A stretch of DNA of 64,000 bases, from positions 28,846 through 92,845 of the IMG/VR virus record IMGVR_UViG_3300042691_021691. The stretch is one strand, 5' to 3'. Positions 691 to 47,270 of this stretch are shown piece after piece; the first letter of the stretch is position 1, and each line of letters opens with the position of its first letter. The position numbers and the translations under genes are program-made. The notes under the pieces were generated by a model. That model was not told the origin of the DNA, did no database searches, and saw only the letters and a list, made by a program, of their open reading frames with translations. This DNA comes from a virus.

Positions 691-1182
691 ATGACTAAAA
701 ATTCTTTATTGGTACGTCCGAGAAGTTGGGTGGGATCGGTTTTTAATGAACGTGATTCGTTTGTTAATTCATTTGATCAAATTTTCGATGAAATGCTTAA
801 GACACAGTTCCCAGAAGCATTTACCGAAATTGGCGCAAATCCAATTGGTAGAGCAGCGTATCCAAAGGTTAATGTAGTAGCAAAAGAAAATTCATTGGTT
901 ATTGAGGCGGAGCTAGCAGGACTGAAAAAGGAAGAAATTGATCTAGATGTTAAGGATACGATTCTAACAATTTCAGGAAAAGCTACTTCCACCGAAGCGG
1001 CAGAAAATACGGTTTATGTAATTAGAGAATTAAAGCGATCTGGTTTTAGTCGTGCATTTGTGCTTGGTAAACAATTTGATACTTCTAAAATTAGTGCAAC
1101 ATTTGAAAACGGGTTACTGACAATTGAAATTCCAAGATTTATTAAGGAAGACAGTAACCCACAAAAGGTTACGATTAAGTAA
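691..1182 (+). CDS. small heat shock protein (Hsp20/alpha-crystallin family)
   Basis: YPKVNV...AELAGLKKEEI...FSRAFVL...ISATFENGLLTIEIP and a C-terminal V-T-I (IXI) motif; SD AGGAG. Confidence 0.95.
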   Translation: MTKNSLLVRPRSWVGSVFNERDSFVNSFDQIFDEMLKTQFPEAFTEIGANPIGRAAYPKVNVVAKENSLVIEAELAGLKKEEIDLDVKDTILTISGKATSTEAAENTVYVIRELKRSGFSRAFVLGKQFDTSKISATFENGLLTIEIPRFIKEDSNPQKVTIK

Positions 1183-1201
1183 AAACCTTAAATAACTAGG
1201 A

Positions 1202-1302
1202 GGGCTAACGTAATGATTCGTAGTTTTAAATCAGCAGTAGTTAATCACAAAAACTATAACCGATATAACTAGGAGGTGATCCACATCGGTTATATTTAGC
1301 CC
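1202..1302 (+). ncRNA. structured RNA element displaying a 13-nt complement of the 16S rRNA 3' end in a hairpin loop
   Basis: Outer stem GGGCTAA(1202-1208)/TTAGCCC(1296-1302); inner stem TATAACCGAT(1255-1264)/ATCGGTTATA(1285-1294); loop contains AGGAGGTGATCCA (1271-1283). Confidence 0.6.
1213..1272 (+). CDS. 19-aa small ORF / leader-like peptide MIRSFKSAVVNHKNYNRYN
   Basis: Strong SD AGGAGG at 1198-1203, 9 nt before the ATG; stop TAG at 1270-1272; below the ORF-track size cutoff. Confidence 0.5.
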   Translation: MIRSFKSAVVNHKNYNRYN

Positions 1303-1325
1303 AAAACGTTAACCATGGAGATACT

Positions 1326-1360
1326 AACGGGGTCATTGAGAACCACTCTTTGACCCCGTT
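1326..1360 (+). terminator. terminator-like hairpin
   Basis: AACGGGGTCA/TGACCCCGTT 10-bp stem with an inner GAG/CTC; the U-tract is weak (TTCATTCATTT). Confidence 0.55.
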
Positions 1361-1383: not shown

Positions 1384-2439
1384 ATGATAACACTACATAG
1401 ATTGATAGTATTTACGGCATTTTGTATAGCAGCGGCAGCAGCATATTTTTCAGTTACAGGAATAGGAAAATTATTTGCAGGTGCAGCTATGTCGGCAATG
1501 GTTATGGCAAGTGCGTTAGAATTAGGAAAGCTGGTATCGGTTTCATTCTTATATCGATATTGGAAAATTATACCTCGTGCATTAAAAACTTATATGACTG
1601 CTGGCAGTATAGTTTTAATAGCTATAACATCCGCTGGTATATATGGATATCTTTCATCTGCGTATGCTACAGTTGCCGCTACGCCATTAAAAATGAACGC
1701 AGATATACAAATTTTAGATGCACAGGCAAAAACTTTAGATGAAGAAATTCAAAGAAAGACAAATAGATTAGATCAAATTATTTCTCTTCGTGGACAGCAA
1801 GAATCTAGAATTGATAATTTGATTGCAAAAAGTACAACTGGTTCTAATACTACAATTAGAACGGCGCAAAATTCATTGCGAGAATTAGATAGAACAGCAT
1901 CGGCGTTACAACAAGAAATAAACAAAACATCCGCTCAACGTGATAGCCTACGGGCAAAAAGTCTAACAACAGGTGTTGAAATTAATACTAATTCCGACAT
2001 AGGAACTTTTATGTATATTGCAAATGCAATAGGAGTTCCATTAGATACTGTAGTTAAATGGTTTATATTAGTTATTGTCTTGGTGTTTGATCCTTTGTCT
2101 ATTAGCTTAGTATTAGCATATAATTTTCTAAAAATGCAAGAAACTAAAAGTGTGGAATCCAAGCCTATAGAAGATGAAAAGGAATTGCCGTTGTATACAC
2201 CGGAGCCAATAGCAGAAAAAATAGAATTGGTGGAAGCAGAAGAACTTACACCAGACATACCTGCTGTATTAGATTTGCCAACCGAAGAAGTAATTAATAA
2301 AATTGATTATAATCAAATATATAATGATCCAATGCCATATTATATGAATTCAAAATATGATTGGAACAAAGATCAACGATGGGAAACCGACCCATCTGCT
2401 ATAGCATTCAAAAGATATTTAGATAACAAAACCATATAA
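1384..2439 (+). CDS. multi-pass membrane protein with a long coiled coil, function unknown
   Basis: Three N-terminal hydrophobic helices, a heptad-rich middle, a further TM (WFILVIVLVFDPLSISLVLAYN) and an acidic tail. Confidence 0.8.
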   Translation: MITLHRLIVFTAFCIAAAAAYFSVTGIGKLFAGAAMSAMVMASALELGKLVSVSFLYRYWKIIPRALKTYMTAGSIVLIAITSAGIYGYLSSAYATVAATPLKMNADIQILDAQAKTLDEEIQRKTNRLDQIISLRGQQESRIDNLIAKSTTGSNTTIRTAQNSLRELDRTASALQQEINKTSAQRDSLRAKSLTTGVEINTNSDIGTFMYIANAIGVPLDTVVKWFILVIVLVFDPLSISLVLAYNFLKMQETKSVESKPIEDEKELPLYTPEPIAEKIELVEAEELTPDIPAVLDLPTEEVINKIDYNQIYNDPMPYYMNSKYDWNKDQRWETDPSAIAFKRYLDNKTI

Positions 2440-4043: not shown

Positions 4044-5078
4044 ATGTATGAATGCCTAACATATGATGATATAAATCTAGTTCCCGCCTATAGTGAGATC
4101 GAAAGCCGTCAAAATATTGATCTTACGACACAATTAACTACTAATTATAGTTTAATGGTTCCGCTCATCGCAAGTCCTATGGATACGGTATGTGATGTTG
4201 ATATGGCTATTGCAATGGCTGAAATGGGTGGTGTAGGATGTATTCATCGATTTATGTCCATTGAAGAGCAAGCGGAGCAAATACGGGATGTAAAATTTTC
4301 TATACGCGACAGCATCTATTATGAAAGATGGAACGGTATGGAAATTCCCTATATGGCTGCGGTTGGAGCCAATGGTGATTATTTAGAACGGGCACAAGAG
4401 TTGACAAATAAAGGTGCAAATGTTATATTAATTGATGTGGCACACGGACATCACAAATTTGTCAAAGATGCTATTGAAAATTTAAAGAACAAGCTACCAT
4501 CACACGTTGATATTATTGCTGGGAATGTAGCTACTGCTCAAGCTGCAATGGATTTAGAGGATTGGGGAGCTAATGCAATTCGAGTGGGTATAGGCGGCGG
4601 ATCATTATGCACAACCAGAATTAAAACTGGATTCGGTGTTCCTAATATTACATCACTAGAACAATCTTCTAATTCGACATCGGTTCCAATTATTGCATGT
4701 GGTGGAATTCGTTCAAGTGGAGACATTGCGAAAGCACTGGCTGTTGGGGCAAGCTCTGTAATTCTAGGTTCTTTATTAGCAGGAACAAAGGAAGCGCCTG
4801 GGGCAATTATTGAGAAGTCTACTGGTTTATATAAGCGTTATCGTGGGGCAGCTTCTTTGGAAACCAAGACAGTGCATGGTCAAGTGCAACGTAACGTGGA
4901 AGGGGAATCCACCGTAGTTCCGTTCAAAGGTGGGGCAAAATTTGTTATAGAAGGGTTATTGGATGGGCTTAGGTCGGCACTGTCATATGCAGGAGCACAA
5001 AGCTTATCTAAATTTAATCCTGAATATGTCAGAGTAACAAATGCAGGAATAACAGAAGGAAGACCGCATTTGTTATAA
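4044..5078 (+). CDS. IMPDH/GMP reductase family enzyme without CBS domains, more likely GMP reductase
   Basis: LTYDDINLVP, SPMDTV, IDVAHGH, AGNVAT, GIGGGSLCTTR (catalytic Cys), GGIRSSGDIAKALA, GLRSALSYAGA. Confidence 0.9.
   Translation: MYECLTYDDINLVPAYSEIESRQNIDLTTQLTTNYSLMVPLIASPMDTVCDVDMAIAMAEMGGVGCIHRFMSIEEQAEQIRDVKFSIRDSIYYERWNGMEIPYMAAVGANGDYLERAQELTNKGANVILIDVAHGHHKFVKDAIENLKNKLPSHVDIIAGNVATAQAAMDLEDWGANAIRVGIGGGSLCTTRIKTGFGVPNITSLEQSSNSTSVPIIACGGIRSSGDIAKALAVGASSVILGSLLAGTKEAPGAIIEKSTGLYKRYRGAASLETKTVHGQVQRNVEGESTVVPFKGGAKFVIEGLLDGLRSALSYAGAQSLSKFNPEYVRVTNAGITEGRPHLL
4401..4429 (+). promoter_or_regulatory. intragenic sigma70-type promoter TTGACA-N17-TATATT with extended -10 TG
   Basis: TTGACA 4401-4406, TG 4421-4422, TATATT 4424-4429; the first 10 nt (TTGACAAATA) are identical to the 2444 promoter. 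Confidence 0.55.
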
Positions 5079-47051: not shown

Positions 47052-47270
47052 ATGTATGTTGAAGTAAAGGGGGATTCAAAGGATGACTTTGAACGCGCAC
47101 TAAAGCACTTTTCTAAGATAGTTAAAAAAAATGATATTGTAAATGAAGTTAAGAGACGGGAGTTTTATGTGACTCCCTCCAAGAAAAGAATATTAAAAAG
47201 ACAAGAATCTAAGCGAAGACAGATCAGAGATGCTCGCAAGATGCAAAAGAGAACGCAAACAGATTGGTAA
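47052..47270 (+). CDS. rpsU: phage-encoded 30S ribosomal protein bS21
   Basis: VEVK...FERALKHFSKIVKK..IVNEVKRREFYVTPSKKR matches the S21 consensus; 72 aa, basic; SD AGGAG. Confidence 0.9.
   Translation: MYVEVKGDSKDDFERALKHFSKIVKKNDIVNEVKRREFYVTPSKKRILKRQESKRRQIRDARKMQKRTQTDW

Follow-up and report, generated by a model that had tools for sequence, protein, structure and literature searches.

This analysis concerns a small RNA module encoded by a phage in a stretch of 64,000 nucleotides (nt), here called the window, that lies within a 92.8-kb virus record (IMGVR_UViG_3300042691_021691). The phage is a T4-like myovirus with a genome of ~200 kb. Near the start of the window, between an hsp20 gene and a gene for a membrane protein, a small open reading frame (ORF) led by a Shine-Dalgarno (SD) sequence ends at an SD-like motif that lies in the loop of a hairpin (P1) and is an exact complement of the 3' end of 16S rRNA. 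The module is a conserved element of phage genomes and not a product of chance, and its motif is treated here as a putative start-less extended SD. The features of the window copy, together with the phage gene for ribosomal protein bS21, are as follows.

691..1182, plus strand: hsp20 gene (Pfam HSP20, 2e-20; PHROG 432), the usual but not obligatory upstream neighbour
1192..1204, plus strand: stop-rich cassette and SD of the small ORF (SD1, AGGAGGG at 1198-1204), with the first copy of a repeated 12-mer
1202..1208, plus strand: 5' half of a window-specific outer stem, pairing with 1296-1302 over a perfect 7 bp
1213..1272, plus strand: small ORF of 19 codons, peptide MIRSFKSAVVNHKNYNRYN, whose stop codon TAG overlaps the SD-like motif
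1255..1294, plus strand: hairpin P1, formed by 5' arm 1255-1264, which comprises the final ORF codons, a 20-nt loop at 1265-1284, and 3' arm 1285-1294
1271..1283, plus strand: putative start-less extended SD AGGAGGTGATCCA, a 13/13 complement of 16S ...UGGAUCACCUCCU (nt 1528-1540, E. coli numbering)
1296..1302, plus strand: 3' half of the window-specific outer stem, pairing with 1202-1208
1311..1321, plus strand: linker motifs, AACC (AACCUY in relatives) and a second GGAG(A) at 1317-1321
1326..1360, plus strand: terminator-homologous hairpin with a 10-bp stem (1326-1335/1351-1360) and a U tract that is degenerate in the window
1384..2439, plus strand: membrane/coiled-coil protein gene, the usual downstream neighbour
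47052..47270, plus strand: phage ribosomal protein bS21 (PF01165, 52.8 bits), given for context and outside the module

An earlier reading of this DNA from its letters (the sequence-only reading) had located the 12-mers, the ORF, SD1, the 13-mer, the stems, and the hairpin, and every one of these coordinates was borne out. The 12-mer ATAACTAGGAGG is present in two exact copies (1192-1203 and 1265-1276), with no third in the window, and the first copy supplies the SD of the small ORF as proposed, with AGGAGGG at 1198-1204 preceding the ORF at 1213-1272. The 13-mer AGGAGGTGATCCA occurs just once in exact form, in the window as in the full 92.8-kb record, and its chance expectation is ~0.001 per window, by arithmetic from base composition. 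The stem described around the motif (1255-1264/1285-1294) is a perfect 10 bp and is the minimum-energy structure when the 51-nt core is folded alone (-11.4 kcal/mol, z -2.75). When 201 nt are folded, the minimum-energy structure favours pairings other than P1, and the region is overall stabler than shuffles (z -3.2).

Conservation of the small ORF, motif, and hairpin

Loci around homologues of the membrane-protein gene were fetched from viral contigs (80 loci) and metagenomes (23 loci) and are denoted by L-numbers; their leaders were aligned in alignments A2, A6, and A7. The sequences are related to each other, so version counts overstate their independence. The hairpin with GG(A/G)GGTGAT(C/T) is present in ~65 of 78 viral loci, roughly 100 to 120 nt upstream of the membrane-gene start, and likewise upstream of the homologous gene in further metagenome loci. 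Conservation of the module extends to ~40% protein identity of the neighbouring membrane gene, and the related uncultured freshwater myoviruses hold 49 distinct ORF-plus-loop versions. The conservation and covariation that the sequence-only reading had asked for in related phages are thus both present, the latter as compensatory changes in P1. The alignments have one leader architecture in common, consisting of SD1, ATG, and small ORF, a stop codon at the motif edge, P1, a linker (AACCUY and GGAG(A)), an A-rich tract, an intrinsic terminator, and the SD and ATG of the next gene. A covariance model of P1 found exactly one copy in each of four large relatives with estimated completeness of 72%, 89%, 51%, and 45%, that in the 45% complete one being a weak partial match only. 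A pattern scan of 2.9 million viral contigs gave matches only in this phage family, with no second copy and no other context, and a nucleotide search of the phage collection gave no match. The element is absent from the cultured relatives Flavobacterium phage immuto and Microcystis phage Mel-JY01 and from huge phage LR756508. Loci without the motif have no near-miss variants of it, and the whole leader is missing there. Rfam gave 0 hits in the window, sub-threshold noise only at positions 1150-1420 (tpke11, 19.7 bits versus a cut-off of 43), and tRNAs only in six relatives, in agreement with the earlier statement that no named element has such an architecture.

Every complete leader contains a small ORF that begins with ATG and is preceded by an SD. 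In each relative whose leader is complete, SD1 is of the GGAGG type and lies 6 to 9 nt before the ATG, and several relatives have TAAC-N-AGGAGGT in common between SD1 and loop. In all 49 distinct versions, the offset between the stop codon and the motif's first G is -1 to +3 nt, so that the claim of a stop running into the motif holds throughout. This adjacency is kept across TAA, TAG, and TGA, across unrelated peptides, and across shifted frames, the window included. Read together with its customary 5' flank (TAACTAGGAGGTGA), the motif contains stops in all three frames. The small ORF of the relatives is 14 to 26 codons long, or three codons in L059/L060 as read from the sequences. Most of its peptides are rich in cysteine, with a conserved MCxCxxCxC...C pattern and 4 to 8 Cys in 16 to 26 codons. 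The two Cys codons are both in use (156 TGT and 88 TGC), a sign that selection acts on the amino acid. The Cys-rich peptide of the relatives resembles a mini metallothionein or a polycysteine leader. The small ORFs of the window, L042, L059/L060, L063, L065, L067, L068, and L071 have zero, one, or two Cys, and at least seven lineages, the window among them, have no or one Cys, yet stop, motif, and hairpin are kept. The window ORF looks like a former Cys-type ORF in which the Cys codons mutated and the frame shifted one base before the stem; it codes for no Cys, and the stop adjacency is re-established by a new TAG that overlaps the motif. Since the adjacency is kept while peptide and frame differ, what is conserved is translation up to the motif and not the peptide. 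A bypass of the T4 gene 60 type was rejected as an identity for the element, as matches between the last sense codon and a downstream codon are at chance level, with none in the window.

The core of the motif, GGRGGUGAU(C/U), is an invariant pattern over 64 versions. Its conserved complementarity to the 16S tail spans 10 to 12 nt and would pair with nt 1529/30-1540, so that the earlier 13/13 match is exact in the window but its thirteenth base varies among relatives. The predicted duplex between motif and 16S tail has an energy of -24.9 kcal/mol, versus -5 to -8 kcal/mol for the ordinary SDs of the phage, and the longest anti-SD match before any real gene in the record is 7 nt. Substitutions were tallied per motif position on a tree of the neighbouring gene with 64 distinct versions. 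The 10-nt core underwent 15 changes, 14 of which are transitions preserving pairing with 16S GAUCACCUCC, a sequence that is near-universal at the 16S 3' end in bacteria. Seven changes between A and G fell at position 3 and six between C and U at position 10; there was one change from A to G at position 8 and one from U to C at position 6, and five G positions and one U position had none. Positions 3, 8, and 10 are exactly those at which a transition keeps a wobble pair with GAUCACCUCC, and only 3 of the 10 positions permit it. The base preceding the motif (opposite U1540) is A or G in 61 of 64 versions, the base after it (opposite G1529) is C or U in 55 of 64, and the next base is free. No conserved start codon lies 4 to 13 nt 3' of the motif in 45 aligned versions, which extends to the relatives the earlier observation that a start codon at SD distance is lacking. 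The codons 7 to 10 nt past the motif are AUC, AAC, AAA, ACC, or CUG. Many relatives have their closest ATG within the 3' arm, paired in the stem and 15 nt from GGAGG; the window has ATA at this position.

The display of the motif in a hairpin loop, as the sequence-only reading had it, applies to the main clade and the window, where local folds leave the motif in an open loop; two subclades mask it. In the L048 clade, it is masked by a 7-bp helix with the last codons of the ORF (AUCAUCU), and in L059/L060, where the 5' arm is missing, by a 10-bp G-U-rich helix with the 3' arm. That the motif is fixed while its intramolecular setting changes between clades points to an external partner. The loop appears to evolve as if obliged to pair with an invariant external RNA, for which the 16S 3' tail is the obvious candidate. 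A partner encoded by the phage itself was also considered and rejected, the phage genomes containing no conserved complementary sequence and only chance-level 9-mers.

Over 33 sequences, P1 is paired in 94% of cells, compared with 23 to 35% for slid controls, and 4 of its 11 pairs show compensatory changes (e.g., C-G to U-A and A-U to G-C). A wider sequence set gives the same picture, with additional compensatory changes in 4 to 5 pairs of the terminator stem. One-sided changes in P1 turn A-U into G-U and C-G into U-G on the plus strand and would be mismatches on the other strand. All phage genes are on the plus strand. Because the G-U pairs fit the plus strand only, the element is an RNA on that strand. 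A minus-strand RNA mimicking the 16S 3' end was rejected on the same grounds, the G-U pairs becoming A-C mismatches. The loop and an invariant RGUUAY of the 3' arm keep their sequence even where the 5' arm is lost (L059, L060, and L071). In the main clade, RNAalifold predicts P1, a 3-bp intraloop helix, and the terminator only. An alternative helix between motif and 3' arm (GGA-GUGAU with GUUAYGUY) is possible in 96% of cells, with no compensatory change, and may explain the invariance of RGUUAY. Mimicry or invasion of helix 45 by the UAACCG/CGGUUA stem was rejected, since a distant clade has UAACUG/CAGUUA instead.

The further helices that had been read from the window fared less well. The outer stem (1202-1208/1296-1302) is perfect there, with a duplex energy of -11.9 kcal/mol, and is strong in a few relatives too, but it is not conserved, and pairing in the relatives is not above shuffles. 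The weak competitor CGTTA/TAACG is specific to the window and not conserved in relatives. Candidate antiterminator duplexes between the 3' arm of P1 and the 5' arm of the terminator have energies of -2 to -11 kcal/mol, and at the median 31% of shuffles are equally good; cognate pairs reach -6.6 kcal/mol, versus -5.7 kcal/mol for swapped pairs, and RNAalifold predicts no antiterminator helix. The proposed attenuation of the membrane-protein gene through competing helices is accordingly not supported, and with neither an antiterminator nor a conserved outer stem behind it, attenuation of that gene is unproven.

Linker, terminator, and neighbouring genes

AACCUY, an anti-SD look-alike, and the nearly invariant second GGAG(A) form conserved columns in A2, A6, and A7 (A6 columns 60-85). 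They lie 6 to 17 nt before the terminator stem, and no conserved start codon follows them. The terminator of the relatives has a GC-rich stem and a T run, with energies of -14 to -26 kcal/mol, and lies 8 to 15 nt before the SD of the next gene. The strong hairpin noticed at 1326-1360 is present and homologous to this canonical intrinsic terminator, but its U tract is interrupted in the window (TTCATTCATTT), and a consensus terminator scan does not call it.

The membrane/coiled-coil protein (1384-2439) has more than 3,800 metagenomic homologues and belongs to no Pfam or PHROG family. Relatives of it are found in jumbo phages of Xanthomonas, Stenotrophomonas, and Ralstonia and in a pelagiphage. 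A protein search with hsp20 in viral contigs gave no relatives. In L043, L053, L063, and L071, hsp20 is not upstream, and the module follows an HD-domain gene or another gene with its terminator. In L079, a 263-amino-acid gene (1689-2480) is inserted between the module's terminator and the membrane gene, and in L050, the next gene is a convergent one of 298 amino acids (1501-2397, minus strand), for which the same hairpin is a two-way terminator. The module, found without hsp20 or without the membrane gene as a direct neighbour, depends on neither and is self-contained. It is a small gene with a structured 3' part and not strictly a leader of the membrane gene. An RNA thermometer of the ROSE or fourU type, in which a weak U-rich helix masks the SD of a small heat-shock gene just ahead of its start codon, does not describe it, the element lying 3' of hsp20 and having no start codon.

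The phage, its probable host, and SD usage

The major capsid protein of the phage is 57% identical to that of Flavobacterium phage immuto. A gene of the IMPDH/GMP-reductase family (window positions 4044-5078) has its 13 nearest genome matches, at 64 to 69% identity, in metagenome-assembled genomes (MAGs) of Chitinophagaceae, Chitinophagales, or Bacteroidota, some on contigs of 0.36 to 1.8 Mb, and is probably an auxiliary metabolic gene acquired from the host lineage. The G+C content is 37.9% in these MAGs and 36.7% in the phage. Judged by this one auxiliary gene, G+C content, and capsid kinship, a Bacteroidota host is rather likely, with Chitinophagaceae as the probable lineage. SD motifs precede 54 to 56% of phage ORFs and 49 to 55% of those in element-bearing relatives, against a background of 8 to 10%. 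They precede 5% of ORFs in regions of the Chitinophagaceae MAGs (L162-L166), which is background, and 3 to 5% in phage immuto (L144). In distant relatives without the element (L075-L078 and L080), an SD motif precedes 0 of 12 ORFs, versus ~55% in element-bearing loci. The contrast is a hint that SD usage, the element, and perhaps bS21 go together, although a sample of 12 ORFs is far too small for a conclusion.

The phage and four of five large relatives encode bS21. In Flavobacterium johnsoniae, Tyr54 of bS21 is stacked against A1534 and contributes to sequestration of the anti-SD (PMC7797042, PMC9723584). When the phage protein is aligned with bS21 of Chitinophagaceae, the host Tyr54 faces Arg55 of the phage. 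The rpsU genes of the candidate host MAGs are preceded by the extended SD AAAGGAGGT. In Bacteroidia, only extended SDs such as that of rpsU engage the ribosome, preferentially ribosomes lacking bS21 (PMC9976891). The phage motif extends in the opposite direction to the rpsU SD and covers nt 1530-1534, including A1534. Taken together, this looks like an SD-dependent phage in an SD-blind host, bringing its own non-sequestering bS21.

Interpretation, rival explanations, and known systems

The reading to which we give a probability of about one half takes the motif for a start-less extended SD whose partner is the 16S 3' tail; termination on the small ORF would open the motif and hand it over. The stop adjacency, the 16S-compatible evolution of the loop, and the lack of a start codon fit a termination event that opens the stem for a free anti-SD. 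A ribosome translating the SD-led small ORF would unwind P1, and in some clades also the helix that masks the motif, and would terminate at the motif edge, leaving the motif single-stranded without ever reading through the sequence that would arrest it. A 10- to 13-bp duplex would then arise between the motif and the anti-SD of a 30S subunit, in the simplest case the subunit that has just been released, giving a long-lived 30S-RNA complex just upstream of the intrinsic terminator. Such a complex may protect the RNA, as STAB-SD does (PMC4113751), or occupy it before the terminator; it may also hold or prime a ribosome, hand it over to the nearby GGAG, or act in trans on ribosomes with a free anti-SD. 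The rRNA tail as partner, the capture after termination, and the action of the complex are the parts of this reading that we infer.

Several points weigh against it. A 12- to 13-bp duplex inside a closed 20-nt loop is sterically awkward, and opening of the hairpin by translation is proposed partly for this reason. With only three core positions varying, the pattern of substitutions is suggestive and not a proof, and a protein tolerating the same transitions would be compatible with it. Complementarity was scored against the general bacterial 16S 3' end, the candidate host MAGs being without that end. Neither a conserved outer stem between the SD1 region and the region after P1 (mean z -0.31 versus shuffles; none from RNAalifold) nor an antiterminator between the 3' arm of P1 and the 5' arm of the terminator (mean z -0.45 versus shuffles) is supported. 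Moreover, the start-less SD does not explain the second GGAG, AACCUY, or the Cys-rich peptide.

The Cys-rich peptide is what a cysteine-sensing leader would account for, in which ribosomes stalled at Cys codons would alter the fold of P1 and thereby regulate terminator read-through into the next gene, the SD-like loop being secondary. An attenuator has a short ORF with regulatory codons before a terminator, and here ORF and terminator are present in nearly all versions and the Cys bias, with both codons in use, in most; the terminator lies 8 to 15 nt ahead of the next SD, and polycysteine short ORFs have precedent as Cys-responsive attenuators (bioRxiv 10.1101/834739). However, the bias is absent from the at least seven lineages that keep stop, motif, and hairpin, the antiterminator is unsupported by both the z score and the comparison of cognate with swapped pairs, the downstream gene of L050 is convergent, and the invariant 10-nt rRNA complement is left unexplained, so that this alternative seems quite unlikely. 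Conservation of loop and RGUUAY as sequence even without the 5' arm would also be expected if the motif bound a protein or another RNA, e.g., a phage translational repressor or bS21, with its likeness to an SD incidental or a form of mimicry. The register nevertheless matches the 16S tail over 10 to 12 nt, the variation is wobble-preserving only, and the phage has no conserved complementary sequence. Recognition of the RegB (GGAG) or CsrA (GGA) type is excluded by the 15 of 64 versions that read GGGGG and contain neither, and a binding site of this kind is improbable overall. It is very improbable that the motif serves, or once served, as an ordinary ribosome-binding site for a tiny ORF lying downstream. 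The 3'-arm ATG of the main clade does open a frame of 4 to 13 codons, but the spacing to GGAGG, at 15 nt, is against it, the ATG and the triplet opposite it in the stem covary (CAT/ATG versus CGT/ACG), the window has ATA, the frame is unconserved in length and sequence, and the codons 7 to 10 nt after the motif are those listed above. Each of these three alternatives fails to account for at least one conserved feature.

Two further possibilities draw on bS21. The module may be a trans-acting decoy, i.e., a stable, terminator-bounded small RNA whose loop absorbs ribosomes with a free anti-SD; by blocking the bS21-less ribosomes that translate host rpsU, it would stop replenishment of host bS21 and let phage bS21 take over. 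Consistent with this, the module is self-contained and ends in a strong terminator, bS21 is encoded by the phage and most of its large relatives, the probable host lineage has rpsU with AAAGGAGGT as described for Bacteroidia (PMC9976891), and the phage motif is longer and covers the A1534 held by Tyr54 of bS21 (PMC7797042, PMC9723584). A single gene copy would, however, face thousands of ribosomes and the phage's own SD-led mRNAs, a pure sponge needs neither stop adjacency nor a translated ORF, and the host assignment draws on one auxiliary gene and G+C content, which makes a decoy unlikely. It is also doubtful, but conceivable, that the module is a phage tool for reprogramming an SD-blind Bacteroidota ribosome, the motif pulling the 1530-1534 tail with A1534 out of the Tyr54 pocket of bS21 on a ribosome just finishing the small ORF. 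If so, ribosomes would be primed or marked for exchange to the Tyr-less phage bS21, or the host rpsU leader would be out-competed, and the SD-led phage genes (~55%) would gain exclusive access to translation.

Among known systems, ribosome standby sites, such as those of the tisB and zorO leaders, are upstream single-stranded regions where a 30S subunit waits without initiating, and the phage module can be likened to them. They are not SD-like and serve a structured start close by, whereas the next start in the phage is ~100 nt away behind a terminator and its gene is not always the same. The textbook leader-peptide model is trp attenuation. With the trp/his and mycobacterial polycysteine attenuators, the module shares a short ORF, in most versions dominated by one amino acid, a hairpin into which the end of the ORF folds, and a terminator before the next gene (bioRxiv 10.1101/834739). 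It differs from them in that the antiterminator helix is unsupported and the Cys bias dispensable in several lineages, and leader-peptide attenuators have no rRNA-complementary loop.

Start-less SDs that bind 30S subunits are known in the form of STAB-SD (Bacillus thuringiensis cry3A; stabilisers of the SP82 and aprE types), which like the phage motif is an SD-like, noninitiating complement of the 16S 3' end with no start codon at SD distance, and which holds 30S; both lie ~100 to 130 nt upstream of the next start codon (PMC4113751). STAB-SD is, however, a 9-nt motif at a processed 5' end, where it blocks RNase J1, with no upstream ORF, hairpin, or terminator. It is a polypurine tract, whereas the phage motif extends toward helix 45 (UGAUC) and lies after a translated ORF and not at a known 5' end. 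Extended SDs can engage the sequestered anti-SD in Bacteroidia, and the extended SD of rpsU in Flavobacteriales and Chitinophagales, which serves bS21 autoregulation, resembles the phage motif in its complementarity to the 16S tail (up to 13 bp), its occurrence in an SD-ignoring lineage, and its link to bS21 (PMC9976891). The rpsU SD forms tight 30S-mRNA complexes (PMC9976891), the counterpart for the phage motif being predicted only. It is followed by a start codon, drives translation, and extends toward the rRNA 3' terminus (AAAGGAGGU), whereas the phage motif extends the other way (GGAGGUGAUC), follows a stop codon, and has no start codon 4 to 12 nt downstream that opens a conserved frame, as a functional SD of any type, rpsU included, would. 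The termination upstream ribosome-binding site (TURBS) of eukaryotic viruses, which tethers the small subunit after termination, is likewise an rRNA-complementary motif in a viral RNA structure beside a stop codon (PMC6393290, PMC3035654, PMC11921876). TURBS precedes the stop, has helix 26 of 18S rRNA as its pairing partner, and enables reinitiation at an overlapping AUG, unlike the phage motif, which lies downstream of the stop, would pair with the anti-SD, and has no conserved restart codon or frame at or near the stop to give a downstream protein.

To our knowledge, ribosome-holding start-less SDs have been described in no more than a few Gram-positive mRNAs, and the bS21 gene of Bacteroidia is the only known source of extended SDs engaging a hidden anti-SD. 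An abundant family of uncultured freshwater phages conserves a more elaborate, putative start-less SD, tied to the termination of a tiny ORF, and the module appears to be a new kind of RNA device for capturing ribosomes, carried by phages that have a bS21 of their own. If 30S capture is true, it would be a compact natural part for tethering ribosomes to RNA. The module, which is ~170 nt long and easily synthesised, offers a handle on how phages encoding bS21 redirect the ribosomes of their hosts.

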